DNA of 64,000 nucleotides from Candidatus Fraserbacteria bacterium (GCA_029262795.1 JAJCYT010000026.1:50273-114272), one strand, 5' to 3'. Shown: positions 977 through 62,261, counted from the first letter of the stretch. The notes: generated from the letters alone by a model not told the origin. A program made the numbers and translations.

Positions 977-1085
977 CTAAAAAGTCCTCTCTGGATCGCT
1001 TGATCAAGCTTTACTTTATTCAAAGTTTGTGTGGAACTCAAGATATAGACTTAAGAAAGTAATGATAAAATACAAATATGAGAAA

Positions 1086-1180
1086 GGCTTCAATCCCCCA
1101 ACCCCCTTTGTCTAAAGGGGGCTACGATGTATCTTTGAGTGCTGGTTCTGTTTTATGAATGTTGTTCTTTTCGGGGAAGA
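1086..1180. repeat. Dispersed REP/MITE-like repeat, forward copy (AATCCCCCAACCCCCTTT-N5-AAAGGGGGCTACGAT plus a roughly 55-bp tail ending TTTTCGGGGAAGAG)
   Basis: It matches copies at 18972, 39488, 55713 and 62262. The hairpin core is CCCCCTTT/AAAGGGGG. Confidence 0.75.
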
Positions 1181-1287
1181 GAAAAAAATTTAACCACTTA
1201 ATTCATGCCGTCAATCCTGGTCACATTCATTTATCCTTTGTAAAAGAAGCCTGTTTCTTGAAGCAAAATCCATGCTGAATGATCAAT

Positions 1288-1330
1288 CGTAGCCCCTTTA
1301 AGATCAAAGGGGTTGGGGATTTGAAGCCTT
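1288..1330. repeat. Inverted partial copy of the same repeat, forming an inverted pair with 1086-1127
   Basis: ATCGTAGCCCCTTTAAGATCAAAGGGGTTGGGGATTTGAAGCC is the reverse complement of the forward-copy consensus. Confidence 0.7.
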
Positions 1331-1390
1331 TACCATTTTATGGATAGATTCTTAAGCTTTTAATTTGATTTTATCTGACTGTTCATAAGC

Positions 1391-5932: not shown

Positions 5933-7386
5933 AACGCTCAACGGTTGTTGAGGTTCGCCCTGCCTTGCATCTGATTGCGGCCATCATTCGTTGGTTAAGC
6001 CTGACTTACCTCCCCCCTTTGATTGCTTCATTTTATTACCGTGAATCCTTTTGGCCATTTCTTATTCCGATGATTCTGGCTGTGATCATCGGCTTTGTCG
6101 GTGAACGCTTGACGCGATCTCCTAAGGAGCTTGGGATTCGTGAAGGCTTTTTGGTTGTCGCATTGGCTTGGTTGTCGATTGCAGCGTTTGGCGCGCTGCC
6201 CTATATCTTTTCCAATGTCAATCTCATCAACGCTTACTTTGAATCCATGAGTGGTTTCACCACCACAGGCGCAACCATTCTTAACGACATTGCCGAGCAG
6301 CCTCGCAGCCTGCTGTTGTGGCGGCAGTTTACCCAATGGTTAGGTGGCATGGGTATTATCGTACTGGCTGTGGCCATTTTACCAAAGCTGTCGGTGGGGG
6401 GGCGTCAATTGATGGAGGCCGAAGCCCCTGGCCCACAGGTAGACAAGTTGTATCCGCGCATTTACCAAACGGCACGCACGCTGTGGTTGTTGTATGTGGG
6501 ACTGACCGTGGTGGAATTTGCGATCTTTAAAATGCTGGGCATGTCCTTTTACGACAGCCTGGGGCATGCGCTGACCAATGTGGCCACAGGTGGGTTTTCT
6601 CCCGAACCGCGTAGCATCGAAGCATTTGGCCCTGCCATCCAATGGGTGGTCATTGTCTTTATGGTCATTGCCGGCACCAACTTCATTTTGCTTTATCGTG
6701 TGATTTCAGGCCGCTTTAATCGACTGTGGCAGGATCGAGAATTTCATTTTTACTTAGGTTTGATTTTCATCGCCGGCCTCACCATCACCTTATTGCTCCC
6801 TGGCGATTCCTGGGAAGAAAACATTCGCCACGGCTGGTTTCAGGCCATCACCATGATCACCGGCACCGGCTATGCCAGCACGGACTTTGATCAATGGTCA
6901 AGCACGCTCAAAATGATTTTGCTGACACTGATGTTTTTTGGTGGCTGTGCCGGAAGCACCACAGGCTCTATCAAAATTGTGCGTTTTGTTCTGGTGATTA
7001 AATTTCTGTTCCGTGAACTGCGAAAGGCCATCCACCCTCAGGCTGTCATTCCTATTCGACTGGGCAATCAAGTGGTTCCCGAAAACGCCCTCGGTGGCAT
7101 CATAGGCTTTACCGTTCTGTACTTTACGACTTTTGCATTTGGCAGCATTTTAATTTTGCTGGATGCTCAACGCGTTGGATTAGATTTAAGCGTGCTTGAA
7201 GGCATCAGTGTTGCTGCAGCAACGTTGGGCAACGTGGGTCCAGCTTTTGGCATTGCAGGCCCAATGGCTTCTTATGATGCCTTCCCCGAAACCTCAAAGT
7301 TGTTAATGATCTTCCTGATGTGGGCAGGCCGTTTAGAATTGTTCCCTGTGTTAGTGCTGCTCACACGTGGCTATTGGCGTCGCTGA
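5929..7386 (+). CDS. trkH: Trk potassium uptake membrane protein TrkH
   Basis: The 485-aa polytopic protein has repeated selectivity-filter-like GxG segments (TTTGATIL, TGTGYAS, GNVGP). Its start overlaps trkA by 4 nt. Confidence 0.85.
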   Translation: MKRSTVVEVRPALHLIAAIIRWLSLTYLPPLIASFYYRESFWPFLIPMILAVIIGFVGERLTRSPKELGIREGFLVVALAWLSIAAFGALPYIFSNVNLINAYFESMSGFTTTGATILNDIAEQPRSLLLWRQFTQWLGGMGIIVLAVAILPKLSVGGRQLMEAEAPGPQVDKLYPRIYQTARTLWLLYVGLTVVEFAIFKMLGMSFYDSLGHALTNVATGGFSPEPRSIEAFGPAIQWVVIVFMVIAGTNFILLYRVISGRFNRLWQDREFHFYLGLIFIAGLTITLLLPGDSWEENIRHGWFQAITMITGTGYASTDFDQWSSTLKMILLTLMFFGGCAGSTTGSIKIVRFVLVIKFLFRELRKAIHPQAVIPIRLGNQVVPENALGGIIGFTVLYFTTFAFGSILILLDAQRVGLDLSVLEGISVAAATLGNVGPAFGIAGPMASYDAFPETSKLLMIFLMWAGRLELFPVLVLLTRGYWRR

Positions 7387-7390
7387 AAAT

Positions 7391-8230
7391 TTACTCTTTC
7401 TTACCAGGCAGAATAATAATTTTACCATCTTCAAGTTTATATGTACCCGGAGATAAAATAATGGTGTCACCAGGTTTAGGAATAATGCCTGAACCAGAAC
7501 TGTTATCAGGTTTGATTTTGTTTGGTGGGATATAAAATTCTTCAATAGATCTGGGTGGCACCTTGATGCCTTTTGGTAATTGAATTTCTATCTTAGGAAA
7601 CTTTTCGCTAAATTCATCAATCCCACCTTTGGGCAACATTATCGCACCGCCATCACAACATTTTGGATTGGCTTCAATGTGGCGTACGAACCTGTATCCG
7701 TGCACAATCGCTAGCCGGAAAGAGGCCACCAAATCACCTTTAGGAAACGTTTCCCCGCCCAACTTAACCTCTTTGGCTGCTCTGGCTTGAATTTCAAAAG
7801 TCCATAAATAAAGCTGAACGGAGATGGTTTTCTGAAGACAAGGTTGTACGCTTTTCCAGTTTTTGGGAATGCTTTTTAGGTCAATCTTCTTAACTCGATC
7901 TTCCTTAAACATTGATTGAACGTCTTCTAGCACCTTGGCTAGAAGCTTATCGTCGGCAAGCCTTGCTTCATTTGATTTACGCACCCCTTCCAACATCTGG
8001 CTGCGCTCGCGACCTTGTAAAAATTTTGGATCAAACTGATCATCCAGTAAATCATCTTCTAATGGGAATTTTCTATTTGCGCCTCCTGGCTCAGGGTGAC
8101 AATCGTATAAAAAAATATCGTGTCGTCCTTTTTCATATTCAAATAAGATGAGCTTGGAGGTGAACACAAGCGAACCACGTTTAAGCATGATGTTGACTCC
8201 CTTGATCAGTTTTAGCTTATTGTAAAACAA
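7391..8230 (-). CDS. Hypothetical protein (orphan, AT-rich cargo ORF)
   Basis: The 279-aa ORF is about 37% GC in a roughly 50% GC context. I recognise no domain. It sits between the trkH 3' end and a degenerate duplicate of that end. Confidence 0.5.
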   Translation of the reverse strand: MFYNKLKLIKGVNIMLKRGSLVFTSKLILFEYEKGRHDIFLYDCHPEPGGANRKFPLEDDLLDDQFDPKFLQGRERSQMLEGVRKSNEARLADDKLLAKVLEDVQSMFKEDRVKKIDLKSIPKNWKSVQPCLQKTISVQLYLWTFEIQARAAKEVKLGGETFPKGDLVASFRLAIVHGYRFVRHIEANPKCCDGGAIMLPKGGIDEFSEKFPKIEIQLPKGIKVPPRSIEEFYIPPNKIKPDNSSGSGIIPKPGDTIILSPGTYKLEDGKIIILPGKKE

Positions 8231-8244
8231 ATGGTGTTTTTTTG

Positions 8245-8340
8245 TCGAATGTAGCGAATTGTATTGAATGTTTTTCTGATATGGGCAGGTCGTCTGGCAT
8301 TGTTCCCCGTGCTGCTGACTCGCGGTTATTGGCGTCGATA
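8245..8340 (+). pseudogene. Degenerate duplicate of the trkH 3' end (it encodes WAGRLALFPVLLTRGYWRR* compared with the authentic WAGRLELFPVLVLLTRGYWRR*)
   Basis: It shows about 80% nt identity to 7300-7386 with a 3-bp indel. It has no upstream ORF body. Confidence 0.75.
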
Positions 8341-8341
8341 G

Positions 8342-10303
8342 CTAATCGGCCAGCCCTAGTTTGCCAAGCAGCTCTTTGAAGCCTGGCTCTTCGCGCAAGG
8401 GGTCAAAAGAGGTATGAACTTTTGCATAACTTATTAAGCGGTCACGCTGCTCGTAACCTTTCCACAAGTATTTCATTGCTGCTTCAATTTTACCCAAAGC
8501 GATGTAAACAAAAGCAATGGCCACAGGTGAAACCAAACTATCGAGCTGCCTATCTAACATATTTGTCAATATGTCATAAGCCCGTAGCTGCTCCCCCTGA
8601 ACTGCATGGATAGAAGCACACAGTGAATCCGACATATCTGTTGTACCTTGGGTGCGAGTGAATTTGCCCAGCAAGCTCAATGCTTCATCAAACTGTGCGG
8701 TTTGGTAAAGCACTTGCACAAGGTAATATTTTACCAGACCGGAGTCAGGATAGTTCTTAAAGAGATGCCTCATATACCGCTCACTTTCTTCAAAACTTCC
8801 CCGAAATAAAAAATCCAGACCGATATTGGCTTGGATGATGATCGAGAGTGGGTCCAACTCCAATGCTCGATTGAGTTCCTTCGTCGCTTTATCATGTTGC
8901 TTCAATTGACTCAGATTATTTCCATACCAGTGGTGGGCAGTGGCATAATTGGGATTGAGTTCAATCGCTTTTAGAAAAGAAGCTTCAGAGCCCTCCCAAT
9001 CAAAGTCCTTGCTTTTAATTTGACCAAGCGATGCATAGGCTTCTCCTAAGTTTGGATCAAGTTCTAAAGCTTTTTCAATGGCCTGACTCGCATGTTCAAC
9101 AATCTTTTCGGTTCCCATATTCATCGAAAAGTTGTCGAGTATGAGATAAGCATCAGCAAGGCCAACATAAGCCAACGCATAGTTTAGGTCGACTTGAATT
9201 GCTGATTCAAAACATTTGATAGATTGTAAAACGGATTCATTACTTCGCTGATTCCAGAGATGTAAGCCTTGAAGATAGTGATGATATGCTTCAGTGCTTT
9301 CAGTTTGATTGGTAGTCAGTTGCGCTCGTTCTTCCGAGGTCATGTTGGCCTGGAGGGCTTCCACAATTTTCTCTGCCACTTCAGTTTGCACCTCAAAAAT
9401 GTTATCAAGGTTTCGATCATAGCTGTCGGCCCACAAATGTTCGTCTGTAACTGCATTGATCAACTGCGCCGTGATGCGAACCTGATTGCCTGCGCGTCTA
9501 ACCGAGCCTTCGACGACAGTGGCAACGCCAAGTTCTCTGCCAATTTCTCTCAGATTTCTTTTCACACCTTTGTATTGCATGACTGAGGTTCGGCTGATGA
9601 CTTTAAGTTCACGCACTTTGCAGAGTTTGGTCAGAATATCTTCGGTCAAGCCATCGCTGAAATACTCGTTGTCTGGATCTGTGCTGAGATTGTCGAATGG
9701 TAACACAGCAACAGATTTATCGGAAATATCAACAGCTTCAGAATTTTCCGCATTCTCTATTGATTGCGATGGATGGTTCTGCCAGTGAGGGACCACTTTG
9801 AATACTTCAATCGGGTTGTCAATATTTTTCAATTCGGGCGTACCGATGCTTTCAAACTCGGTATTTAGTTTGGCCTGCACATTGTCATACACATTGCGCG
9901 TGATGCAGATGCCAGCAGGATCAGCGAGAGGTTCAATACGGGAAGCAATGTTAACGCCGTCGCCAAAAATATCGTCGTTTTCGGAATGAACATCGCCCAC
10001 ATGAATCCCGATGCGTAAATTGATGGTGTGATCCTGTGGCTGACCTTTGTTAAATCCATGCAACATGCTCTGGATAGAAATAGCACAATCCACTGCGCTT
10101 AAAGCGCTGCCAAATTCCACCAAAAAACCATCACCCATCGTTTTAACCAGCGTCCCCTGATGCTGCTCTAAAAACGGGATGAGCAATTGCCGTTTGGTTG
10201 AGATCAACTTGAGGGCGAGTGATTCGTCTTTCTGCGTCAACGCACTAAAGCCAACCAAATCAGTGAACATAATGGCAGCAAGGCGGCGATGGTTTTGAGT
10301 CAT
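8342..10303 (-). CDS. Class III adenylate/guanylate cyclase with a COG5616 (TolB-N-like) middle domain and C-terminal TPR repeats
   Basis: The N-terminal cyclase signature is FTDLVGFSALT...TMGDGFLVEF...LRIGIHVGDV. The central VAVLPFDNLS...YFSDGLTEDI segment is present. The C-terminal half is a TPR-like helical-repeat region. Confidence 0.75.
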   Translation of the reverse strand: MTQNHRRLAAIMFTDLVGFSALTQKDESLALKLISTKRQLLIPFLEQHQGTLVKTMGDGFLVEFGSALSAVDCAISIQSMLHGFNKGQPQDHTINLRIGIHVGDVHSENDDIFGDGVNIASRIEPLADPAGICITRNVYDNVQAKLNTEFESIGTPELKNIDNPIEVFKVVPHWQNHPSQSIENAENSEAVDISDKSVAVLPFDNLSTDPDNEYFSDGLTEDILTKLCKVRELKVISRTSVMQYKGVKRNLREIGRELGVATVVEGSVRRAGNQVRITAQLINAVTDEHLWADSYDRNLDNIFEVQTEVAEKIVEALQANMTSEERAQLTTNQTESTEAYHHYLQGLHLWNQRSNESVLQSIKCFESAIQVDLNYALAYVGLADAYLILDNFSMNMGTEKIVEHASQAIEKALELDPNLGEAYASLGQIKSKDFDWEGSEASFLKAIELNPNYATAHHWYGNNLSQLKQHDKATKELNRALELDPLSIIIQANIGLDFLFRGSFEESERYMRHLFKNYPDSGLVKYYLVQVLYQTAQFDEALSLLGKFTRTQGTTDMSDSLCASIHAVQGEQLRAYDILTNMLDRQLDSLVSPVAIAFVYIALGKIEAAMKYLWKGYEQRDRLISYAKVHTSFDPLREEPGFKELLGKLGLAD

Positions 10304-10396
10304 GGGCGCATTGTAATGAAAAAACGGTATGTTTGTGAATCAAAACCAACATCACTGAAAAAATCATCACCAGGCAAAAATCATCTAAATTAGCCA

Positions 10397-10464
10397 AATG
10401 TAGCCCCCTTCAGATTTTGGAAGGGTCCCCCTTCTAGACAAAGGGATCTGGGGGATTCAAGCCT
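10397..10464. repeat. REP/MITE-like repeat copy (reverse orientation, with a nested extra hairpin)
   Basis: GTAGCCCCCTTCAGATTTTGGAAGGG...AAAGGGATCTGGGGGATTCAAGCC. Confidence 0.6.
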
Positions 10465-10499
10465 TTAAATTTTCAATAATTTTGGTTTATGATTGTTGA

Positions 10500-10548
10500 A
10501 ATAAAAAGAAGCAGGGCAAGCGGACTCGCCCTGCTTCGTGTCTTTTTC
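10500..10548. terminator. Bidirectional rho-independent terminator
   Basis: GAAGCAGGGC-N10-GCCCTGCTTC is a perfect 10-bp stem flanked by an A-run and a T-run. It lies downstream of the minus-strand gene ending at 10568. Confidence 0.7.
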
Positions 10549-10567: not shown

Positions 10568-11512
10568 TTAGAGGGTGCCTAAGCCGGAATTTGGAGCCAG
10601 GTCCACCAGATCATCACCACTGAAATCGGTGTATTGTGAAAAACACAGCCACTGAACATCGCCAGGAGAGCCAAGCAACTCCAGGTTGAGGCGCATGGTC
10701 AGAAAGTTGCCATCGACTTCACTGTTGATGCCCAAGATGGTGTCGTTGGGGCTGGCAGTATTAACCAGCGTGGCAAATGGATTGCCTGGAATCCAGTTGC
10801 TGAGTGCAAAGAATTCAAACCCACTAGGGTTGAATGGCGCAGCAAAGCTGGCATCTCCATCGGTATCCAGATAGCAGCCAATCTGACGTGGTTCATCCAA
10901 CACGATTTCTGGCAAAATGCCCAGCATGTTGAAAGTAAACACCAGGTCGGTTTCAGAACGCGTGGCGCGAAGGTCTACAATATCAATGCCATTGACGTCC
11001 TCCGACACTGCGTCGCCTGAGGCTCGATCAAACAAATCGTTGACACTGTCCTGAACATCGAAAGTGCTTTCAAAATCGACCACGGTCAGGTCAAAGCGAA
11101 CAGATTTGTTGGCCGTTCGTGGAGCGTCACATTCACTGGCCAGACCACTGGCCACAAAGGTCATTGGATATACGCCTGCTTCCGAAGCTTCGAGCACTTT
11201 GATCTGGAAATTAAAATCCAGTTTCTGCCCCTGATTGATGACCCAGGAGTTGCCTCCTTGACGGTCAAACACCAAATTTGCATTCAACACATTGGCCGAA
11301 ATACGCCAACTGCCCATTACAGCTTCAGCGCTAAAACCAATGTCAATCGTTTCACCTGGCAACAGCACGGCATCGACAGGGTCCAGATCTAGTCCGCCAC
11401 GTGCCAATACCAAGCCGCATCTGGCACCGGTTTGTGCCACAGAATCAGAAACCAGCCCGATCAGGGCCAGGGATAAAATCATCATGCCAAAAATAGTTTG
11501 CCATCTTTTCAT
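10568..11512 (-). CDS. Secreted hypothetical protein
   Basis: The start is placed at MKRWQTIFGMMILSLALIGL, a signal peptide. I recognise no domain. Confidence 0.55.
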   Translation of the reverse strand: MKRWQTIFGMMILSLALIGLVSDSVAQTGARCGLVLARGGLDLDPVDAVLLPGETIDIGFSAEAVMGSWRISANVLNANLVFDRQGGNSWVINQGQKLDFNFQIKVLEASEAGVYPMTFVASGLASECDAPRTANKSVRFDLTVVDFESTFDVQDSVNDLFDRASGDAVSEDVNGIDIVDLRATRSETDLVFTFNMLGILPEIVLDEPRQIGCYLDTDGDASFAAPFNPSGFEFFALSNWIPGNPFATLVNTASPNDTILGINSEVDGNFLTMRLNLELLGSPGDVQWLCFSQYTDFSGDDLVDLAPNSGLGTL

Positions 11513-11934
11513 GTCAGTCCTCCTTGTATCTTTCACCTTACTTTGATTGGATGCTATTCCCTTCATTAAAACCCAAGGAACGTACAAAATGGATGCACTG
11601 GAGGTGAAAAACACATGCAAGTTACCTTCAGATTACCTGAAGTCAAAAACCAACTTGATTGATGTTTGGAAAAATAAAATGCAGGTTCTGTCTTTGCGCT
11701 TGCGGTTTTTGGTCGCTTCCACTTCCATTTTGAATGTCAAAACCAAACGCATATAAATATTTTGCACTACAAAACATTAGAAAAACTCTGTAGTATTTAT
11801 CACACTCGCTGCACCTATGGCAGATGCACAAAAAATTCCGAGATCTGCCTAAAACTTGGTCATATTTTTATGATTTTTGCTACGCTTATCATAAGTGTGA
11901 GAAAATGATTCATTAGACAAAGGAGAGGCTGAGT

Positions 11935-17911: not shown

Positions 17912-17950
17912 TTGTAAAAGACTTCAAATCCCCAACCCCTTTAATCTTAA
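17912..17950. repeat. REP/MITE-like repeat copy (forward)
   Basis: CTTCAAATCCCCAACCCCTTTAATCTTAAAGGGGCTAAG. Confidence 0.6.
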
Positions 17951-18091
17951 AGGGGCTAAGCTTAGATTTCGATGGTTGATTCTGTATGACGAATCATTTT
18001 CTATTCGATTATAAAAAAATTTCTGTTCTCAGTGGAGATCGTACCCGCAATTGTTAGAATGGGGCAACTTCCTGTTAACCGGAGGCTGAGG

Positions 18092-18922
18092 ATGAATCTT
18101 GAATTAAAACCTGCACTGGACTTTCCCATAGATCGGCTGGCACAGATTATGAACGCCGGATTTGAGGATTATCTGGTGCCCGTTCAATTGACCACCGACC
18201 GCATGTCGCGCCTGGTTGCCCAGGATGGAGTGGACCTGCAACTCAGCCAAATCGCCATGCAGCAAGATGAGCCTGTTGGCCTGGGCCTGATTGCCCAACG
18301 TGGCTGGACCAGTCGGCTGGCTGCCATGGGCATCGCCAAAGAAGCACGAGGCATGGGCATTGGCAAGCAGCTAATGGAATATTTCATTGACGCTGCCAAG
18401 AAACGCGACAATCACACGATGGTGCTGGAAGTGATTGAACAAAATGAACCTGCCGTTAAGCTCTACCAAAAAATGGGATTTGAAACCAAAAGTCGCCTGG
18501 TCGGCTTCAGTGGCGTCGAACTCCAAGGCGTTGCCAACACTGCTTTAAGGCAAATTGACGTGCCTGAAATGACCCGTTATCTCTACCGTTACGGCCCATC
18601 GAATTTGCCTTGGCAAGTGGCCCCAGAAGCATTTTCCAACGCAGGTGGCGTCTATCAAGCCTTTCAATTAGATCAGGCTGTAGGGTTATTTGTATTGTTC
18701 CCTGAAGCCGAGTTTGCCATCATCCAATCCATCGTGGTGCCGCCCGAACATCAACGCCAAGGTCAAGCGTCAAACTTAATTCAAGCTCTTATAGCCGCCT
18801 TCCCAGGCCGAACCTGGCGTGCGCCCATCGTTTTTCCCGAAACCCTTGCTCCAGGACTGTTTGAAAAAAATGGGTTCGAAAAAGAATCTCTGTCTCAGTT
18901 TCAAATGGAATTAAAGCTTTAA
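18092..18922 (+). CDS. GNAT-family N-acetyltransferase (tandem GNAT domains)
   Basis: There is a GGAGG RBS. The acetyl-CoA motif is RGMGIGKQLMEYFIDAA...VLEVIEQNEPAVKLYQKMGF. Confidence 0.7.
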   Translation: MNLELKPALDFPIDRLAQIMNAGFEDYLVPVQLTTDRMSRLVAQDGVDLQLSQIAMQQDEPVGLGLIAQRGWTSRLAAMGIAKEARGMGIGKQLMEYFIDAAKKRDNHTMVLEVIEQNEPAVKLYQKMGFETKSRLVGFSGVELQGVANTALRQIDVPEMTRYLYRYGPSNLPWQVAPEAFSNAGGVYQAFQLDQAVGLFVLFPEAEFAIIQSIVVPPEHQRQGQASNLIQALIAAFPGRTWRAPIVFPETLAPGLFEKNGFEKESLSQFQMELKL

Positions 18923-18971
18923 TTTTAAAAGAGGTGCTTAAAGAGCAAAGGCATTAAATCATGGTTAAAGC

Positions 18972-19060
18972 GTCTAATCCCCCAACCCCCTTTACATAAA
19001 GGGGGCACGATAAGTCTGTGAGTGCTTATTCTTAATTACGAAACGTGATTTTTAATGAAC
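18972..19060. repeat. REP/MITE-like repeat, full-length forward copy
   Basis: TAATCCCCCAACCCCCTTTACATAAAGGGGGCACGATAAGTCTGTGAGTGCTTATTC... Confidence 0.75.
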
Positions 19061-19192
19061 GTGAAAAGGTTATTTTCTGACCTATGTTTTTGACACTTTT
19101 TCTTTTCAACTTTCCTTCTAAAATTATTAATTAAACCAGAACAACCACCCATGTAAAAACCCCATATCAAATTGATTTCACATTCGAAAGCC

Positions 19193-19240
19193 AATCGTAG
19201 CCTCCCTTAGCAAAGGGGGCTGGAGGGATTGAAAGCCTTT
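19193..19240. repeat. REP/MITE-like repeat, inverted copy pairing with 18972
   Basis: AATCGTAGCCTCCCTTAGCAAAGGGGGCTGGAGGGATTGAAAGCC. Confidence 0.65.
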
Positions 19241-19253
19241 ACAGTTTTTCAGA

Positions 19254-20426
19254 TTATCGTGCCAAAGCCCCTGCTGATTCTTTCAATGCCTCAACTTTAT
19301 CCAGAGCTTCCCAGGGCAAGTCGAGGTCATTACGACCGAAGTGGCCGTAAGCGGAGAGTTGCTGATAGATAGGGCGGCGCATGTTGAAATTGTGAATGAT
19401 GGCCGCAGGTCGGAAGTCAAAATGGTCGCGAATAATATCGACCAATTGATCATTAGAAAGCGGTGCATCTTTGTTGGTTTTGGTGGTGATTGATACCGGT
19501 TGTGGCACACCAATGGCGTAAGCAACCTGTAATTCACACCAGTCAGCCAAACCAGCCGCTGCGATATTTTTTGCAACGTAACGCGCCATGTAAGCACCTG
19601 TGCGATCCACTTTACTTGGATCTTTGCCAGAGAAGGCACCGCCTCCATGGGCGGCGTAACCACCATAGGTGTCCACAATAATTTTGCGTCCGGTCAGACC
19701 CGCGTCACCATGTGGACCACCAACAACAAAACGGCCCGATGGATTGATGAACAAATTGATTTGATCATTGAACCATTCTCCCAAAACGGGGCGAATCACA
19801 TGTTCAACCAAATCTTTTTCCATTTGTTCCAACGTCACTTCTTCTGCGTGCTGGGTTGAGATGACCACGTTTTCTACTCGAACAGGTCGATCACCATCGT
19901 ATTCCACACTGACCTGAGATTTGCCGTCAGGGCGGATATAAGCCAACACACCCTCTTTACGGACTTTTGCCAGTTGACGTGTTAATCCATGCGCAAGAGC
20001 AATTGGCAGGGGCATGTATTCTGGTGTTTGGTTGCAGGCAAAACCAAACATCATGCCCTGGTCGCCTGCGCCCACGGAATCGAAGTTGGCATCATCCTGA
20101 GCTTTGATCACGGCCTGGTTGATGTCTGGGGACTGTTCATGAATTTTGTTGATCACTTCACAATCATCATAATGAAAACTATCCTCGCCATTGATATAGC
20201 CAATGTCTTTGATCGCTTTGCGTACCACGCTTTCCACATCAACTTTTGCCGTGGTGGTGATTTCGCCACCCACCAACACCAAGTCGGTGGTCACAAATGT
20301 TTCACAGGCGACTGTAGAAAAAGGGGCTTGATCAAAGATGGCGTCCAACACGCTATCCGAAATGCGGTCGGAAACTTTATCTGGATGGCCTTCGGTCACA
20401 GATTCGGAAGTGAACAATCGTTTCAT
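19254..20426 (-). CDS. metK: S-adenosylmethionine synthetase
   Basis: [24 protein letters not shown]... is the canonical MetK N-terminus. The protein is 390 aa. Confidence 0.9.
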
Positions 20427-37982: not shown

Positions 37983-38064
37983 CCACAGCCGCCGGATTCT
38001 GCTTGGGCTTCGCTGGGGTTTTCGATGTAAAAACCTTTGCCGTGTTCGCCGGATGTGAAATCTA
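37983..38064 (-). pseudogene. Truncated remnant of an iscA-like gene 3' end (it encodes ...SGEHGKGFYIENPSEAQAESGGCGCG)
   Basis: It is a diverged duplicate of 39027-39135. It abuts the stop of the hydrolase gene and has no N-terminal part. Confidence 0.7.
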
Positions 38065-39021
38065 GTTTTTATTCAAGAAATCATTCACCAACTGCGCAAT
38101 TTCATCTGGCGCATCTTCTGGGCTGTAATGACCAACATTCGGTAGCCGTTGAATTGGAGCATCTGGAAAAAGCTGGCTGAAAAGTGGCAGGAAATGTTCG
38201 GCGTGAAGGGTGCGATCCTGCTCTCCCCAGATGGCAAGCGCGGGTTTGTTTTTGATTTTAGCTTTCACTGAATCATCTGGATCTTCAAATTGGTGCATCC
38301 CTGTAGCAAAACCTTTGGCCCATCCAATTGCACCTGCTGCATGGGCAGGTGTAGGAAACGGCGCACGATAAGCATTGATCCAAGTGTCATTAATGATTTC
38401 ATTTCGAACAAAACCGTTCAATTTGAGCGTGGAAAGCATGTTGTAGTCAAGATGTCCCAACACTTCTTCAAGGATACCTTTTTCCTCCGACTGACCAATC
38501 CATTGAAACCAAGGCGAAACAGCAACATTGGCCATGACACGATCAAGTAAGTCAGATTGCCCTAATGGCGTTGGGCCGTTGACGGAGGCGATTCGCTTGA
38601 TTCTATCTGGCTGGCGAGCTGCCAATCCCATGCCAGCCGGTCCGCCGAAATCATGCATCACCAGAGTGATGTCATTCAGGTCGAGCTTTTTTACAAATGA
38701 TTCCAAATTGTCGATATGATCTTGAAGCCAATAGGTACGATCCTGTGGTGCAGCACTTTTACCAAACCCCATATGGTCTACAGCAATTACTCGCGCGCTT
38801 TTTGACCAAACAGGAATTTGTTGACGGAACAAATATCCCCACGTTGGCTCGCCATGAAGCAGCAAAAGTGTTTCTTCGCCTTTTCCTTCATCGACGTAAT
38901 GCATCTTGAATCCTGGGGCATCTGTAAATCGAGCTTGGAATGGCCAGGAGCCATCAAATGTTTCATTGGCAGAAACCGCCGGAGTTTGAGCAGATGGTTT
39001 CAGATCAGCATTTGCTGACAT
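38062..39021 (-). CDS. Alpha/beta-fold hydrolase (haloalkane dehalogenase or epoxide hydrolase-like)
   Basis: The oxyanion hole is HGEPTWGYLF. The nucleophile elbow is DHMGFGKS. The start is chosen at MSANADL, directly after the iscA-like stop. Confidence 0.7.
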   Translation of the reverse strand: MSANADLKPSAQTPAVSANETFDGSWPFQARFTDAPGFKMHYVDEGKGEETLLLLHGEPTWGYLFRQQIPVWSKSARVIAVDHMGFGKSAAPQDRTYWLQDHIDNLESFVKKLDLNDITLVMHDFGGPAGMGLAARQPDRIKRIASVNGPTPLGQSDLLDRVMANVAVSPWFQWIGQSEEKGILEEVLGHLDYNMLSTLKLNGFVRNEIINDTWINAYRAPFPTPAHAAGAIGWAKGFATGMHQFEDPDDSVKAKIKNKPALAIWGEQDRTLHAEHFLPLFSQLFPDAPIQRLPNVGHYSPEDAPDEIAQLVNDFLNKN

Positions 39022-39023
39022 GG

Positions 39024-39373
39024 TCAGCCACAACCACAGCCGCCAGAACCACAACCGCAACTGCCGGACTGTTCCTGATCTTTGGCTTCGTTGGGGTTTT
39101 CGATGTAAAAACCTTCGCCGTGTTCGCCGGACATAAAGTCCACTTTGGCACCGGCCAAAAGCGTTCCACTGTTGGCATCCACATAGAAGTTTACACCGTC
39201 GTATTCGAGGATGGTGTCGTCGTCACTGCCGTCCTGGGCCAGGAAAAAGCCGTATTTCATGCCACTGCAACAACCGTCTTGAGCCACGATGCGAAGACCG
39301 AAATCTTCTTTTTGTTCGCTTTTCAAATAGTCTTTTACAGCGTCAACCGCTTTTTCTGTAATAGTGATCATAA
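39024..39373 (-). CDS. IscA/HesB/ErpA-family A-type iron-sulfur carrier with an unusual Cys/Gly-rich C-terminal tail
   Basis: The start is MITITEKAVDAV... with an AAGGAG RBS. The IscA-like core is GCCSGMKYGF. The C-terminal tail is SGSCGCGSGGCGCG. Confidence 0.65.
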
Positions 39374-39487
39374 CGACACTCCTTAGTGATTTTCTAACAC
39401 TTATCATATCCCGAAAACATGACCAATGCAATGGAATTGACCGATGGAAAAGACTTTGGTAAAATGAAGAAAAAGAGACAGAGATTT

Positions 39488-39600
39488 TTTAAAAACTTCT
39501 AATCCTCCAACCTCCTTTTCCATAAAGGAGGCTACATTTGGGCCAAGCATGTTGTTTCTGCGCGTGATCATTGGTTCTTTGTGTAAGTTTGGTAGGAATT
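39488..39600. repeat. REP/MITE-like repeat, full-length forward copy
   Basis: TAATCCTCCAACCTCCTTTTCCATAAAGGAGGCTACATTTGGGCCAAGCATGTTG... The stem carries compensatory changes (CCTCC/GGAGG). Confidence 0.7.
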
Positions 39601-39872
39601 GAAAACCTTAAAAATTCTGCCTCGGAAAAATCCTGAACTCGTATTTCCCCCCAAACGAGTCGTTGTGTGATCCAATTTCGTGTTGGATTTTTACAGCGCG
39701 TTGATCGTCGTCATTTTTTACAAAATGGCAGCAACTTGGGACTCAAAATTTGGACGCCAGCGATTCCTATATCGTGGCTGTTTTTGTGTTGCAACTCCAC
39801 TGACTTGTTAATGGGTTGTCCTTAATTTTTATTCAAATCAATTTGAAAACGATTTTCATTTTCAAATTCAGC

Positions 39873-40095
39873 CTGTTGAAAACCCTGTTGAAAACTCGGC
39901 AAAATCTGTTGAAAACCTGTTCAAAACTTGGGGGCCAACTGTTGAAAACTCCTGTTGAAAACTCGGCTCCAGAGTTTTGCACAGGGGTTTTCAACAGGAA
40001 AGACAAAGTTTTGAACAGGTTTTGCACAGGGTTTTCAACAGGGTATACCTACTACAAACGCAGTTAGGTTGGAAAGTTCGGAAAGTTTTCAACAG
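39873..40095. promoter_or_regulatory. Cluster of 12 DnaA-box-like 9-mers (6 direct CTGTTGAAAAC-type, then 6 inverted GTTTTCAACAG or GTTTTGCACAG), a candidate oriC
   Basis: Direct copies start at 39873, 39885, 39906, 39917, 39939 and 39952. Inverted copies start at 39974, 39987, 40008, 40019, 40031 and 40085. The cores TTTTCAACA and TTTTGCACA are 1 mismatch from the TTTTCCACA box variant. Both flanks are AT-rich. The cluster is upstream of recF. Confidence 0.45.
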
Positions 40096-40225
40096 GCAGG
40101 GCCGCCCCTACTAAGACTACTACTTTATAAATAAAAAAACTTAGAGGCTTTTGTAGGAAGTCGTAAAATCGTAAGAAATTTTGATTCTCCATTTGAACCT
40201 GAGTAGACTCACTCAAGGAACACAC

Positions 40226-41329
40226 ATGAAATTATCCAAACTCTCTTTAAAGCAATTTCGTAACTTGGAACCTCTTTCTTTAGAACCTCATGAGAACCTC
40301 AACCTGATTGTGGGATTGAACGCCTCTGGGAAGACCAATCTTTGTGAGGCACTCTTTTATGCATCTAGGGGACAGTTGTTGAAAGGCGAACGTCAAAGAG
40401 AAATCATCAATTGGGATTGTCAGTGGAGTACTTTAAACCTCGAAGTTGGTTCTGAACACATTCGTATTGTCATGGACAACCATGAACAGACAAAAACTTT
40501 AGAACTCAGTGGAGAACTTGTTAAACAACAGGATCTGTTTGATGTCTTCAAAGTCCTTATCTTTACGCCAGACGATTTACAGATTGTCAAAGGCAGCCCT
40601 TCCAAAAGACGTCGAATGTTAGATCGAAGTATCGCCGATTTGGATGTGGCCTATCGTAAAGCGTTGCTGAATTATGAACAGGTTTTGAAACGAAAGAATA
40701 TTCTCTTGCGTCGAGATCGACCTGATCCTGAACTCCTTTCTGTCTATCAACAGCAGCTAGTGGAGCATGGGACACAATTGGTTCGCCAACGTCTTTTATA
40801 TCTGAATGAATTGAACAAGTATTTGAGCGTATTTCATCAGGAATTGAATCAGGCCAAGAAACCATTGTTTCTCAAATATGAAAGTGACGTGCCTTATGAC
40901 GGCAATGTGCCACAGCAGCTAGAAGAGGCACTGAAGAATGCTCACCAAAAAGAAATTGATCGGCGTATGAGCTTGATTGGTCCGCATCGGGATGATGTGT
41001 GTTTTGACATCGAAGGCATGGATGTTCGCCGGTACGGTTCCCAGGGTCAGCAGAAGACTGCGTTGATTGCGCTCAAGCTCGCGCAACTGGAGTTGTTTAA
41101 AGAACGCTTGGGTGAATACCCTGTGCTTATTCTCGATGACGTTCTGAGCGAATTAGACCCTGAACGTACTCAGATGCTGCTCAATCATCTGCCACAGGAT
41201 TTACAACTTTTTTTGACGGAGACAGATTTGAGTGATCCATTGGTCGAACGAGCTGGAAAGGTGTTTCGTATCAGCCACGGCCAGATTGAAGAATTGTCGA
41301 AAGAAGAATTATGCCCATCCCAGAACTAG
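40226..41329 (+). CDS. recF: DNA replication and repair protein RecF
   Basis: MKLSKLSLKQFRNLEPLSLEPHENLNLIVGLNASGKTNLCEALF contains the Walker A motif and the canonical RecF N-terminus. A C-terminal signature region is present. Confidence 0.85.
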   Translation: MKLSKLSLKQFRNLEPLSLEPHENLNLIVGLNASGKTNLCEALFYASRGQLLKGERQREIINWDCQWSTLNLEVGSEHIRIVMDNHEQTKTLELSGELVKQQDLFDVFKVLIFTPDDLQIVKGSPSKRRRMLDRSIADLDVAYRKALLNYEQVLKRKNILLRRDRPDPELLSVYQQQLVEHGTQLVRQRLLYLNELNKYLSVFHQELNQAKKPLFLKYESDVPYDGNVPQQLEEALKNAHQKEIDRRMSLIGPHRDDVCFDIEGMDVRRYGSQGQQKTALIALKLAQLELFKERLGEYPVLILDDVLSELDPERTQMLLNHLPQDLQLFLTETDLSDPLVERAGKVFRISHGQIEELSKEELCPSQN

Positions 41330-41859
41330 AAAATATTTTTGCAGCGTATGGTTTAAAAGATGCTTTTTATGAGCAGGAAGCCTTGTTTCACTGGGAAGAA
41401 GTTGTGGGACCAAATACCGCGCGATTGACGGAACCACTCAGTGTCAGTCAGGGTGTACTTTATGTTCAGGTAGGGAATCACGTGTTTGCACAGGAATTTA
41501 CATTGTTGCGCGAAACCTGGCTGGACATTTTGAATCAAAGATTGAAGCAGCCGCTCAAAGACATTCGCTTCAAAGTTGCAAAAGTGGACAAACCGAAACC
41601 GCCGCCGAAGTTACCCAGTGTTGATGAGATTGATCTGGATGAAAGCGAGCAAGCAGACGTTGAGTCTCTGTTTGAAGGGCTTGAGGATGACTCGTTGAAA
41701 CAAGCGTTCATGAAGATTTATGAAACGCAGCAAAAAGCTGAGAAAATCCGAGCGGATTTGGAGAATCAGAAGCAGTGCCCCAGTTGCCAGATGTATCACG
41801 ATGGAGATGGATTAATGTGTCCCTTTTGTGTGTTGGAAGGTAAGACATATCCGTCCTAA
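41311..41859 (+). CDS. DUF721-domain protein with a C-terminal zinc ribbon
   Basis: It lies immediately downstream of and overlapping recF, as in the typical recF to DUF721 synteny. The motifs are GVLYVQVGNHVFAQEF and a C-terminal CPSC...CPFC. Confidence 0.65.
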   Translation: MPIPELENIFAAYGLKDAFYEQEALFHWEEVVGPNTARLTEPLSVSQGVLYVQVGNHVFAQEFTLLRETWLDILNQRLKQPLKDIRFKVAKVDKPKPPPKLPSVDEIDLDESEQADVESLFEGLEDDSLKQAFMKIYETQQKAEKIRADLENQKQCPSCQMYHDGDGLMCPFCVLEGKTYPS

Positions 41860-41936
41860 GCCATAGAACTTTATCTGAAGGATAACGCCCGATTAGAAAA
41901 CCCTTCTTGAGGCAGAACATGCCAACGAAGCCCAAT

Positions 41937-41985
41937 TGTAGCCCCCTTTAGTAAAGGGGCTGGGGGATTTGAAGTCTTTTATATT
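41937..41985. repeat. REP/MITE-like repeat copy (reverse)
   Basis: TGTAGCCCCCTTTAGTAAAGGGGCTGGGGGATTTGAAGTC. Confidence 0.65.
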
Positions 41986-46145: not shown

Positions 46146-46257
46146 TAAGTCTATTGGGCGAATGTGGTCGAAGCCTGCTCTACGCGGTAATGATCGGTGG
46201 TGAGACTTCCAGTAAGAATTATAGTTTGAATGAAGCAGGATCAGGTTCTCGCAGTCT

Positions 46258-46322
46258 TAACCGTAGCCCCCTTTCGATGAGGAAGGGGCTCCCTTCTTGG
46301 AAGGGGGTTGGGGGTTAGGTTG
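46258..46322. repeat. REP/MITE-like repeat copy (reverse, with a nested hairpin)
   Basis: CCGTAGCCCCCTTTCGATGAGGAAGGGGCTCCCTTCTTGGAAGGGGGTTGGGGGTTAGG. Confidence 0.6.
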
Positions 46323-46349
46323 CACAGTGAATGAAAACCTTTCTATAAT
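46320..46349 (+). promoter_or_regulatory. Sigma70-type promoter (TTGCAC, 18 bp, TATAAT) upstream of frr
   Basis: The hexamers are separated by 18 bp. It lies 18 bp upstream of the frr start. Confidence 0.45.
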
Positions 46350-46366
46350 CCAGGCGAGGTGATGCT

Positions 46367-46927
46367 ATGAGCGTTGATCCATTGTTGACCGATGCAGAAG
46401 AACACATGCAAAAAAGCTTACACGTGTTGGAAGAAGATCTTTCAAAAATCAGTACGGGGCGCGCAAACCCTGCGATTATCGAAGATGTGAGCGTGGATTA
46501 TTATGGGGCGGCCACCCCGTTGAAGCACATGGCCAACATCTCTGCGCCTGAAGCGGATACGTTGTTGATTCGCCCATTTGATGCACAGCAAAAACAGGTG
46601 ATTGAAAAGGCGATTCTGGAATCCAATCTTGGGTTTAATCCATCCGTTGAAGATGATGTGGTGCGTATCAAAGTGCCCATGTTAACGGCTGAGCGACGTG
46701 AGCAGTTGATCAAGGTGGTGCATGAACGCGGTGAGGAATCGAAAGTGGCCATTCGCAACATCCGTCGTCATACCAAAGATGATTTGGAAAAGATGAAAAA
46801 CGATGGAGAATTGCCCGAAGATGATTTGCATCGAGAGCTGAGCGCCTTGGATGATTTGACCCACAATTACTGTGACAAGGTGGATGAACACGTTGCCAAT
46901 AAAGACAAGCAGCTAAAAACGGTTTGA
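46367..46927 (+). CDS. frr: Ribosome recycling factor
   Basis: The 186-aa protein MSVDPLLTDAEEHMQKSLHVLEEDLSKISTGRANPAIIEDV matches Frr throughout. Confidence 0.9.
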   Translation: MSVDPLLTDAEEHMQKSLHVLEEDLSKISTGRANPAIIEDVSVDYYGAATPLKHMANISAPEADTLLIRPFDAQQKQVIEKAILESNLGFNPSVEDDVVRIKVPMLTAERREQLIKVVHERGEESKVAIRNIRRHTKDDLEKMKNDGELPEDDLHRELSALDDLTHNYCDKVDEHVANKDKQLKTV

Positions 46928-47121
46928 AACTGAATTTATCGCTTGGTACAATGCCGATGGCAGGCAGGGGCCGATGCTTGAGGGTTGCAAAAGTTCGCTT
47001 CTGCTAACAAAAAGTTTAAATTGAAAAACAGGGTCTGCAATGCTGTGAGTAGGGTTTCAGGGATGCAGGGTCACTTTTTGATTGCCAATCTAAATTTTGG
47101 AGAGGGAAAGCTACAGCTTTC

Positions 47122-47529
47122 GTGCAAACAATGAGTGAGCGTACACATGATGGCTTTGCTGAGCTGGTGGCCTTGAAGCTCAGTGTTCCCACATTGTTGT
47201 TCATTTCCCTGGTGTTGTTGAATTGGGAAATCTCTTGGTCTTTGGGATTCATTCTTGGGGGCGCGGGAGGTTTGTTGGGTTCGTACTTTACCTGGATGCA
47301 CTGGCAGAAACTCTCTGAAAAGTCCGAAAACAAATCTGAAGGTCAATTTCATCAATCCGCTTGGGGCGGCGCCCTGGCCAGCGTGGTCTTGATGGCAGTG
47401 GTATTGTTTGTCAGTGCCTCAACCCCATGGCTGGATCTGTTTGCTGCTGCGGCAGGGTTATTTGTGACAAAAATATTTATTGGGTTGACACCTTTCCTAC
47501 GGAGGACGCATGGATCACATCGGTCTTGA
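47122..47529 (+). CDS. ATP synthase protein I-like small membrane protein
   Basis: It is hydrophobic with 3 to 4 TM helices. Its position is immediately upstream of atpB. Confidence 0.45.
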   Translation: MQTMSERTHDGFAELVALKLSVPTLLFISLVLLNWEISWSLGFILGGAGGLLGSYFTWMHWQKLSEKSENKSEGQFHQSAWGGALASVVLMAVVLFVSASTPWLDLFAAAAGLFVTKIFIGLTPFLRRTHGSHRS

Positions 47530-48244
47530 GATGGTATGGGGTTACTTTACAGACCCCAATGACCCTAGCACTTTTATTCCACTATTGGACGCTCGAATGC
47601 TGGTGATGTCGTGGATTTCGATGCTGATTATTATTTTCGGCTCACTGGTGCTGCGACGCGGGATGAAGTTCAATCGCGATTTTGAAGACGTGCCTTCCAA
47701 ATCTCAGGCATTTTTGGAAATCCTCTTGAAGGGGTTGCATACGCAACTGGCCGGTGGGTTTCAGTCCAACAAGGTGGGCGAACAATTGTTCCCTATGTTG
47801 GCCACTTTGGGGGTTTACATTCTGTTCCTCAACTGGCTGGCACTGATTCCGGGCATGGCCTCTCCAACGGAAACGGTGAACATTCCCATCAGTTTGGGCT
47901 TGTTTATTTTTGTGCTGTCGCACTATTACCGAATTAAGCTCAATGGCCCAATTGGTTATTTAAAGAGCTATATGGAAGCGCCTGGCGTGATGGGCGTCAT
48001 CATGATTCCACTCAGCATTGTGGGTGAAATTGCCCGACCGATTTCCCACTCGTTCCGTCTTTACGGAAACTTGATGGGTGGGGCCATTCTTTTATTGGTG
48101 ATTGCCAATCTGGTGCCGCTTTGGGTGGTGCCGTTGCACACGTTCTTGAACTTCTTCTACATCTTATTCGTGGGTGGCATTCAGGCAATGGTGTTCACGT
48201 TGCTGTCCGTGGCCTATATCGGCATGGCGGAGGGGGATCACTAA
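47510..48244 (+). CDS. atpB: F0 ATP synthase subunit a
   Basis: FRLYGNLMGG is the essential-Arg motif region. The protein is 244 aa with 5 to 6 TM helices. Confidence 0.85.
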   Translation: MDHIGLEMVWGYFTDPNDPSTFIPLLDARMLVMSWISMLIIIFGSLVLRRGMKFNRDFEDVPSKSQAFLEILLKGLHTQLAGGFQSNKVGEQLFPMLATLGVYILFLNWLALIPGMASPTETVNIPISLGLFIFVLSHYYRIKLNGPIGYLKSYMEAPGVMGVIMIPLSIVGEIARPISHSFRLYGNLMGGAILLLVIANLVPLWVVPLHTFLNFFYILFVGGIQAMVFTLLSVAYIGMAEGDH

Positions 48245-48245
48245 A

Positions 48246-49808: not shown

Positions 49809-49866
49809 GGATTTTTAAACTTAAAATTTTTGAAATTACGTGTTGCTCAATTGAAGGAGGACACAC

Positions 49867-50154
49867 ATGGAAGTGTTGAACTTATTCTTGCAAGCAGGAC
49901 AAGGCATTACGGGCGAAGATTTGGTTACGGCTGCCCGTTACTTAGGTGCAGGCATGGCTATGGGTTTTGGCGCTATCGGCCCTGGCATCGGTGAAGGTAT
50001 GGCTGCAGGTGCTGCGTTGCAGGGGATTGCCGCCAACCCAAAAGAACAGGGTGCTTTGGTTCGTACCATGTTCATCGGCCAGGCTGTGGCAGAATCCACC
50101 GGCATTTACGCATTGGTGATCGCCATTATCTTGTTGTTCGTGATGGGCAACTAA
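49867..50154 (+). CDS. atpE: F0 ATP synthase c subunit (conventional monomer, Na+-type-like ESTGIY motif)
   Basis: The 95-aa protein has a GGAGG RBS. Its sequence is GFGAIGPGIGEGMAAG...ANPKEQGALVRTMFIGQAVAESTGIYALVIAIILLF. Confidence 0.85.
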   Translation: MEVLNLFLQAGQGITGEDLVTAARYLGAGMAMGFGAIGPGIGEGMAAGAALQGIAANPKEQGALVRTMFIGQAVAESTGIYALVIAIILLFVMGN

Positions 50155-55712: not shown

Positions 55713-55812
55713 AGGGCTCTAATCTCCCAACCCTCTTTACATAAAGAGGGCTACGATTTGGACTGCGGATGTTGATCCTAAATGACGGTGTGGTTTTCTT
55801 TTCGGGGAGAGG
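55713..55812. repeat. REP/MITE-like repeat, full-length forward copy
   Basis: TAATCTCCCAACCCTCTTTACATAAAGAGGGCTACGATTTGGACTGCGGATGTTG...TTTTCGGGGAGAGG. Confidence 0.75.
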
Positions 55813-55817
55813 ATGGA

Positions 55818-56429
55818 ATGAAAATGGCTTATAAAAAGGAATTGAAATATCTTACGGATGCTGATCCCAAGCTAGGCGAGCTTATCAAAATTAAAGGGCG
55901 CTGTACTTTAGAGCCAGATAACTCAAATCCCTTTGAATCATTATGTCGCTCAATTATTTATCAGCAATTAAGTGGCAAGGCGGCAGGCACCATTAATGGT
56001 CGATTCAAAGCACTCTATCGAGGCAAAAATCCATCTCCAAAACAGCTTTTAAAAACAGAAGATGACACCATCCGCAGCGTTGGTCTTTCTAGAAACAAGA
56101 TGTTGGCATTGCAAGATTTGTCACAAAAAAGTGTCGACAAATCACTTAATTTCAAAGCATTGCCTGACATGGATAATGAAGAAGTGATCCAACACCTCAT
56201 CCAGGTTCGGGGCATCGGACGCTGGACTGCTGAAATGTTTTTGATGTTCACACTAGGAAGAATGGATGTGTTTTCAACGGGCGACCTTGGCTTACAAAAA
56301 GCGATCCAACAACTCTATGGCTACAAAAAACTTCCCGCCGAACGAACGTTACACAAACACGCAAACAAATGGAAACCCTATCGAACCATCGCTTGCTGGT
56401 ATCTATGGCGTTTGGTCGACGATGAATAA
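55818..56429 (+). CDS. DNA-3-methyladenine glycosylase II (HhH-GPD superfamily)
   Basis: The helix-hairpin-helix is VRGIGRWTAEMFLMF. The catalytic Asp region is GDLGLQKA. Confidence 0.75.
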   Translation: MKMAYKKELKYLTDADPKLGELIKIKGRCTLEPDNSNPFESLCRSIIYQQLSGKAAGTINGRFKALYRGKNPSPKQLLKTEDDTIRSVGLSRNKMLALQDLSQKSVDKSLNFKALPDMDNEEVIQHLIQVRGIGRWTAEMFLMFTLGRMDVFSTGDLGLQKAIQQLYGYKKLPAERTLHKHANKWKPYRTIACWYLWRLVDDE

Positions 56430-62174: not shown

Positions 62175-62261
62175 AAAACTCCTTTTGTAGACGATGGATG
62201 AACTAAAAATTTTCTAAAAAGAGGGTAGGTGAAAGGCCATAAATAATCAAATACTTTCTAA

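Follow-up and report, generated by a model that had tools for sequence, protein, structure and literature searches.

A 64,000-nt stretch of DNA from a Candidatus Fraserbacteria bacterium, referred to here as the window, contains 13 copies of a family of intergenic repeats, which on balance are probably non-coding, non-autonomous extragenic DNA elements of the REP/BIME/BoxC class; these would act and be selected at the level of DNA, and would be mobilised as folded single-stranded DNA by an HUH-type enzyme. Elements of this type are ordinary; the lineage that carries them is uncharacterised. Their core is a GC hairpin with two features that the first-pass annotation of this DNA missed, a C-tract that mirrors one arm of the hairpin and has triplex potential, and the motif CTAC, which corresponds to the GTAG tag of REPs. 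The family amounts to about 2–3% of a genome that is small and belongs to a lineage on which almost no work exists; short-read assemblies break at its copies, which also mark synteny breakpoints, so that both assembly and comparison of such genomes must reckon with it. It also connects two bodies of work that have been kept apart, that on GTAG-tagged REPs, which are thought to be moved by RAYTs, and that on BoxC-type triplex repeats.

Copies, repeat unit and hairpin

The first-pass annotation had described an abundant REP-like intergenic family of at least 12 copies. A profile search with nhmmer, using an alignment of the copies that it listed, recovered 13 in the 64-kb window with E-values from 4e-12 to 2e-26 (table 1); every coordinate named in the annotation corresponds to a real copy, and more copies occur in relatives. 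Two of these relatives recur below, species 2 (a 3.2-Mb JGI metagenome contig) and species 3 (an 84-kb ENA scaffold). All 13 window copies are intergenic. The family was also recovered on both strands by a repeat scan of the window (families D3, D5 and D7; inverted pairs I1, I2, I4–I6 and I8), the arms of pair I1 being 85 nt long and 73% complementary. A strict core pattern gave five overlapping matches at three sites (1101, 18985 and 39511), versus 0.04 expected from shuffled sequence, and HIP1 sites (GCGATCGC) are absent from the window, on which ground a cyanobacterial origin was rejected.

Table 1. Family copies in the window, cited in the text by one end and strand; L numbers denote listed loci of relatives.
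Position	Strand	Description	Evidence
1083-1201	+	Full unit; left half of a tail-to-tail doublet	nhmmer, E 2e-26
1219-1339	-	Full unit; 4-C subfamily (TCCCC-AA-CCCCTTT/AAAGGGG); completes the 1083/1339 doublet on the right; 52 nt past the stop of ORF 1391-2404	nhmmer
10357-10466	-	Two hairpins in tandem; probably a fusion of tandem heads	nhmmer; ortholog at L040 7904- (species 2)
17917-18009	+	Single unit; 4-C subfamily; tagged CTAA; flanked by divergent DLH hydrolase and GNAT genes	nhmmer
18967-19072	+	Unit with degenerate tag GCAC; left half of the 18967/19240 doublet, 45 nt past the GNAT stop	nhmmer
19117-19239	-	Unit; right half of the 18967/19240 doublet, 15 nt past the metK stop	nhmmer
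39493-39611	+	Single unit, CCTCC-AA-CCTCC/GGAGG, beside the putative oriC	nhmmer; same variant in species 2 ortholog
41864-41979	-	Single unit; flanked by dciA and a GT4 gene and antisense to each	nhmmer
46203-46321	-	Unit upstream of frr; internal deletion of a tandem two-head arrangement (cf. L067 7640-7990)	nhmmer
55713-55829	+	Single unit behind atpD, triple-compensated CTCCC-AA-CCCTC/GAGGG	nhmmer
56433-56535	-	Degenerate unit, tag GCAT; left edge of the relocated block at 56.6-62.25 kb	nhmmer; counterpart at L128 11486- (species 3)
62251-62366	+	Unit with CTAACCCCC head; begins exactly at the end of species 3 homology	nhmmer
62377-62498	-	Truncated unit without the Py1-AA-Py2 half; abuts the IS1595 transposase promoter region	nhmmer

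Each unit is about 100–120 nt long and is composed of a head followed by a weakly conserved tail. In 157 copies from the window and the relatives listed, the consensus head is (G)TAAAGGCTTCAATCCCCC-AA-CCCCCTTT-(~4-nt loop)-AAAGGGGG-CTACGATT, in which the stem is followed by CTACGAT, and the consensus tail is GACTGCG.A.GT..GTTCTG...TCGA..G.TTTTCTT. Information content is high in the head of about 45 nt and low across the tail of 60–70 nt, while conservation upstream ends about 20 nt before the AA linker, except in a subfamily that carries a degenerate extra head and a spacer upstream of the unit. Of the 111 copies parsed from the matches listed, 88 have CTAC directly on the 3' side of the stem (six have CTAA, and 17 other sequences); on the opposite strand CTAC reads GTAG, the REP tag, and precedes the hairpin.

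The head hairpin has a stem of 8–9 bp and a loop of about 4 nt, and it is the sole consensus structure returned by RNAalifold for an alignment of 62 copies. In this alignment 95.5% of hairpin cells are paired and four pairs show two-sided changes, in 25 cells, which none of 500 shuffles reached; the loop-closing pair is T-A in 35 copies, G-C in nine and C-G in four. The earlier suggestion that compensatory changes reflect selection on the structure is borne out by these counts, and the stem variants cited for it, CCTCC/GGAGG at 39493 and CCCTC/GAGGG at 55713, were correctly read. Apart from the hairpin, the folds of single units are not better than those of shuffled sequence (z from +0.2 to -3.0). 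A closing stem between the 5' end of the unit and the GGGGA(A)GAG tail (CTTC..GAAG versus CTCT..AGAG in two copies) was rejected, because RNAalifold returned only the head hairpin for the 62 copies and the z-scores of single-unit folds lie near 0. Two hairpins each are found in copies 10466- and 46321-, which probably arose from tandem heads through internal deletion.

Mirror tract, triplex potential and related repeats

Py1, the C-tract that precedes the AA linker, mirrors Py2, the hairpin's 5' arm, so that the complementarity of Py1 to the purine arm (Pu) is in a parallel, not an antiparallel, register. In the parallel register 98.4% of Py1/Pu cells are compatible and ten two-sided changes are seen, a three-way covariation that is reached in none of 500 shuffles, leans largely on two subfamilies and a few independent events, and is inflated in its counts by subfamily structure. 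In the antiparallel register there are no double changes and ten cells are broken; Watson–Crick pairing of the upstream C-tract with the G-run was rejected, as no covariation was found. Among the 111 copies parsed from the matches listed, the three tracts have runs of (5,5,5) in 75, of (4,4,4) in 25 and of other lengths in 11. The variant at 55713 is a mirror and not a direct repeat; that at 39493, common to the copy and its ortholog, fits the mirror register; and in copy 19239- the Py1 sequence CCCTCC fits the Pu sequence GGGAGG in the parallel register, with Py2 uncompensated. Many decaying copies carry uncompensated changes.

The consensus T-C5 / AA / C5-T ... A-G5 provides six potential triads, and six is the lower limit for a triplex stem (PMC4666352). 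Intrastrand triplex motif repeats (BoxC/TMECO and the ITxF classes) are defined by three successive blocks that could form Y-R-R (or Y-Y-R) triads, with a stem of at least 6 and loops of 1–6 nt, a layout that the sequence of the window family shares. Judged from its sequence, the arrangement of C-tract and hairpin is a potential intrastrand triplex, as in BoxC/TMECO of E. coli. Repeats of the BoxC/TMECO type were reportedly described in E. coli by Hoyne et al. in 2000 as potential intrastrand triplex (PIT) repeats.

Other metagenome families keep the mirror symmetry, within a search pattern that forced CCCC-AR-CCCC...GGGGCTACRAT (CCCCAACCCC/CTACRAT), so that independent observations are limited to the T positions that mirror each other and to any hairpin complementarity past four bases. 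Among the matches listed, CCCTCCCC-AA-CCCCTCCC/GGGAGGGG agrees with the mirror at eight of eight positions versus six of eight for a direct repeat, and unrelated families on contigs of 25–68% GC have T residues at mirrored arm positions. A contig of 25% GC from an unrelated organism (Ga0256914_1022972; L122 1783-2135) carries seven tandem heads (AAAATCCCCCAACCCCCTTTTTAAAGGGGGCTACAATGAAAAACAAAAATAT) with a period of 53 nt.

BoxC/TMECO repeats are intergenic, show no strand bias, sometimes occur as inverted pairs, lack a transposon link and are tied to local rearrangement (PMC4666352). The window family resembles them in its pyrimidine arm, purine arm, second purine run and short loops (the class II purine motif), and in being G/C-rich and strictly intergenic, with singles and inverted pairs, no strand bias, no transposon and a link to rearrangement. 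It differs in its tracts, which are C5/T3 (C5T3/A3G5) and not CCCTCNCCC, and in having six triads versus nine, a second loop of 2 nt, GTAG directly on the stem and a semi-conserved tail of 60–70 nt; it is also present at about one copy per 4 kb, versus 23 copies in E. coli K-12, and in a different host lineage. The TMECO pattern CCCTCNCCC-N3-6-GGGNGAGGG-N3-GGGNGAGGG is not matched by the window family. Among the matches listed, a different metagenomic family found with the same search pattern has the exact TMECO arm, CCCTCTCCC-N6-GGGAGAGGG-CTG-GGGTGAGGG; in E. coli the TMECO pattern is present, and the deoB-deoD BoxC keeps a CTAC-containing spacer.

In GTAG-tagged REPs the tag is kept in more than 90% of members, and these repeats form inverted dimers and clusters and have complementary stem variants (PMC3733652), and TnpAREP acts on folded single-stranded REPs with a conserved motif ahead (PMC8266576). 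Like GTAG REPs, REPINs and BIMEs (PMC3733652; PMC3116915), the window family has a short GC-rich stem-loop with unpaired GTAG at one end and hundreds of extragenic copies; these form clusters and inverted dimers whose GTAG lies inside ('TT dimers'), persist vertically over long periods, and fall into subfamilies by complementary stem changes. Unlike them, it has a unit of 100–120 nt versus 20–40 nt, a mirror tract on the side opposite GTAG and the exact tag in 79% of copies versus more than 90%, and no RAYT was found with it in the window or in a weak screen of the listed loci.

In the mechanism that we favour, the functional core would be the head of about 45 nt. Its G-rich strand reads 5'-GTAG-[CCCCCTTT]-loop-[AAAGGGGG]-TT-[GGGGGA]-3', and the second purine run mirrors the first. 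When the strand becomes single, during replication, in transcription bubbles or through supercoiling, it could fold back twice to form an intrastrand triplex, with the class II purine motif on the G-rich strand and the matching pyrimidine motif on the C-rich strand. A structure-specific enzyme acting in trans would copy or move the units in the form of folded single-stranded DNA; by analogy with REPs we infer HUH-type mobilisation from the GTAG tag, which points to an HUH/Y1 nuclease (RAYT/TnpAREP-like). Dispersed copies may then act as substrates for recombination and so give rise to rearrangements. Single-strand transposition of the IS200/IS605 type often leaves a replication strand bias; this expected trace is absent from the family, single copies showing no replichore orientation bias on the 3.2-Mb contig of species 2.

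A wider proposal, and a doubtful one, is that the family belongs to a cross-phylum superfamily of GTAG-tagged, triplex-forming mobile repeats that includes BoxC of E. coli, the three-stranded fold being the element recognised by the HUH-type enzyme. If so, the transposition signal would be coded by structure and not by sequence. The layout of mirror tract, hairpin and CTAC recurs at 25–68% GC, and if an enzyme is shared it would offer a handle on the spread of BoxC-type repeats, the mode of which has, to our knowledge, never been explained.

Distribution, persistence and alternative explanations

A GTDB scan of one genome per species with the strict pattern gave a single match, a tail-to-tail pair in an Abditibacteriaceae MAG. 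Three Logan contigs carry proteins identical to the window's MetK, and each ends within the repeat pair behind metK. Short-read contigs of the three species break off inside the repeat. MetK identity is about 88–89% in all three pairwise comparisons of the window, species 2 and species 3. Unselected 21-kb pieces contain eight copies in species 2 (L005) and five in species 3 (L128), and density is similar in the three species, at about one copy per 4 kb. At least 120 stretches, mostly from species 2, were returned by the metagenome pattern scan, and the profile found at least 187 copies in about 950 kb of listed loci. Searches of plasmids and viral contigs gave no match to the family. One of about 150 copies in the window and the listed loci lies inside an ORF.

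The copies persist vertically over long periods, are occasionally gained and are linked with breaks in synteny. Where the window and species 2 can be aligned in synteny, over about 28 kb, they have five of six sites in common (10466-, 19239-, 39493+, 41979- and 46321-), at a coding DNA identity of about 80%. Orthologs of copy 19239- are found behind metK in both species 2 and species 3; copy 41979- has run lengths of (5,4,5) and its species 2 ortholog (4,4,4). The sixth site is occupied in species 2 and not in the window, and next to species 3 this copy shows up as a gained single unit of about 115–140 nt, with no clear target duplication; the occupied and empty sites have a loose GGTTT(TT)AA at both edges and diverged flanks. 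Gene order beyond the metK doublet differs among the three species, with the breakpoint at 18922-19254 in the window, L005 11173-11606 and L128 11173-11591. The window block at 56.6–62.25 kb, which extends from an acyl-CoA dehydrogenase gene to a luciferase-like gene, is located between metK and GNAT in species 3, and copies 56535- and 62251+ lie at its two borders in the window (edges 56429-56608 and 62174-62533). Comparison of these sequences suggests that the block underwent repeat-mediated excision and reinsertion.

Adjacent copies less than 400 nt apart in the window and listed loci are oriented '+-', with heads out and tails and CTAC in, in 33 cases, and '-+' in none; eight are '++', mostly in the seven-head array of 53-nt period on the 25% GC contig. 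The doublets so formed are 190–350 nt long with the heads as inverted termini. The first-pass annotation had taken such facing pairs for MITEs with terminal inverted repeats (TIRs). Its two pairs, 1083/1339 and 18967/19240, are confirmed by the repeat scan and are joined by a third, 62251/62498, and inverted heads do bound the doublets; the proposed TIRs, however, are two complete units of 100–120 nt abutting tail to tail. It is unlikely that the family is a classical MITE, in which the mobile unit would be the doublet of about 200–350 bp with heads as TIRs, served by a DDE transposase elsewhere, and single units would be decayed halves. Such an origin would account for the frequency of doublets and their one invariable configuration, for the folding of the 1075-1345 doublet into a long DNA hairpin (z -6.3; another doublet gave z -1.9), and for a doublet subfamily that can be aligned end to end over about 300–340 nt with distinguishable ends. 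It has a parallel in P. fluorescens, where most REP singletons are remnants of dimers (PMC3733652). Yet the one clear gain was of a single unit and not a doublet, spacers and tails are poorly conserved, and tandem head arrays (L122; L067 7640-7990) are not predicted by a TIR model. No consistent direct repeat was found at doublet ends; the flanks in the gain comparison are diverged, as is, strongly, the intergenic DNA of the sister species. Single units are as common as pairs. The family thus shares with the MITEs Correia of Neisseria, RUP and Nezha a size of 100–350 bp, inverted heads at the termini, an intergenic location and folding into a long hairpin, and differs from them in single-unit insertion, in tandem head arrays and in that neither a parent IS nor, between diverged flanks, a target-site duplication was found.

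No transposase that could serve as a partner was found. Pfam and NCBIfam scans of the 51 window ORFs revealed no Y1/HUH protein and one transposase, of IS1595, and a weak screen of 4,430 ORFs in about 950 kb of listed loci (phmmer with an approximate E. coli YafM query, and an HUH...Y regular expression) gave no RAYT match. The check for a cognate transposase proposed in the annotation has thus turned up neither a RAYT nor a matching IS beside the copies of the window or, within that weak screen, of the listed loci, where no other transposases were seen beside copies either. The genes bracketed by inverted copies in these loci have housekeeping functions (SIR2, thioredoxin-like, GNAT, GGDEF, acyl-CoA dehydrogenase, HU, PadR and similar). 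The annotation was right to separate IS1595 from the family: IS1595 was rejected as the parent element and counts against a MITE, having no second copy and no shared ends in about 950 kb of listed loci.

It is quite unlikely that the heads have instead been domesticated as binding or structural sites of a host protein (gyrase, a repair enzyme or a nucleoid-associated protein) and are selected for chromosome organisation, with the mirror tract as part of a protein recognition sequence and not of a triplex. E. coli BIMEs are a precedent for binding sites of host proteins, and the conservation of five in six positions at about 80% coding DNA identity, the even distribution without orientation bias and, among the matches listed, the very strong conservation of CCCCCAACCCCC...GGGGGCTAC even across contigs of 25–68% GC would all suit such sites. 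A protein that reads duplex DNA, however, gives no obvious reason for a symmetry that is mirror and not dyad, or for covariation in a parallel register, and many copies are visibly decaying and variable in their presence.

Least probable of all, and very unlikely, is that the copies are RNA elements co-transcribed with the upstream gene, as terminators, 3'-end mRNA stabilisers or processing sites. Roles of this kind at mRNA ends have been proposed for many REPs, and the annotation had raised an RNA or terminator function. In its favour, many copies begin 15–50 nt past a stop codon (19239-, 18967+ and 1339-; L005 11189+, 14942- and 17353+), convergent gaps are enriched in doublets (11 of 27, versus 21% of all gaps) and the stem contains G-T pairs. 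Against it, the hairpin lacks a following T-run on both strands, and the terminator-like sites scored at 1–20 kb include none of the copies; copy 10466- lies downstream of a canonical terminator (10508-10537) that already separates it from gene 10568-11620; and single units in unidirectional gaps are sense in 18 cases and antisense in 21. The heads of 70 single copies from the window and relatives face gene 3' ends in 36 cases and 5' ends in 34, so that of the earlier statement that nearly all copies lie between genes at 3' ends, the intergenic location stands and the preference for 3' ends does not. No structure is conserved beyond the hairpin, single-unit folds being close to shuffles, and Rfam 15 gave no match at the gathering score in the whole window; at 18900-19300 one chance-level match was obtained (15.7 bits versus 100, E 0.36). 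Since the copies show no bias in gene or replication direction, carry no T-tract and match no Rfam family, support is lacking for a role as terminator or RNA. An outward promoter formed by TTGAAG/TTGAAA at the head end was also rejected, as the one 9-of-12 match, at 19229-19257, is at background level.

Additional observations in the window

A perfect palindrome of 32 nt with 15-bp arms, AAATCCCCCTTTTGA-AA-TCAAAAGGGGGATTT, is located at 61188-61219 between convergent genes and is followed by GTAGTTTTT, a T-run. The annotation had listed it as related to the family; the palindrome is real and has AATCCCCC and GTAG in common with the repeats, but the profile does not detect it. Since it lacks both the C-tract-AA and CTAC and is followed by GTAGTTTTT, it is probably an ordinary intrinsic terminator.

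At 55713-56535 a gene for a 215-aa HhH-GPD protein is bracketed by inverted units, 70 and 4-106 nt from its ends. A REPtron, in which the repeats flank a cognate RAYT gene, would have this geometry, but the product is 3-methyladenine glycosylase-like, not a transposase. The segment at 62464-63459 comprises the IS1595-family transposase gene (62533-63459) and, upstream, a consensus TTGACA-N17-TATAAT promoter; the missing half of unit 62377-62498 was not seen downstream before the window end.

A probable oriC lies at 39816-40180, in a 750-nt gap in which direct and inverted CTGTTGAAAAC/GTTTTCAACAG boxes are clustered at 39872-40042. The cumulative GC skew has its minimum at about 40 kb, and the gap is followed by a recF-like gene (40181-41329) and dciA (41311-41859). 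The start of the gap, upstream of the boxes (39432-39700), has more than 90% identity to species 2, versus about 80% for coding DNA. Nearby, a direct repeat of 67 nt and 87% identity is found at 38002-38068 and 39080-39146, 1,078 nt apart; the first copy lies mostly just downstream of an alpha/beta-hydrolase ORF (38062-39060), with a 3'-end overlap of 7 nt, and the second within an Fe-S biogenesis ORF (39024-39431).

Species 2 (L040) lacks a segment of about 880 bp at 7383-8261. In the window a direct repeat of about 80 nt stands on the two sides of this segment (7301-7382 and 8262-8343), and each repeat copy aligns to L040 5720-5801. The ORF within the segment (7391-8230, 279 aa) has no Pfam or NCBIfam match.

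The atp operon includes, on the plus strand at 48174-50154, an ORF of 544 aa composed of six tandem ATP synthase c-subunit domains (PF00137), with a period of 258–270 nt and 61–72% nucleotide identity, followed by a separate c-subunit ORF of 95 aa (49867-50154). The arrangement is kept in species 2 (L067, aligned with window 46297-49566), and a covalently fused segment of the c-ring is unusual.
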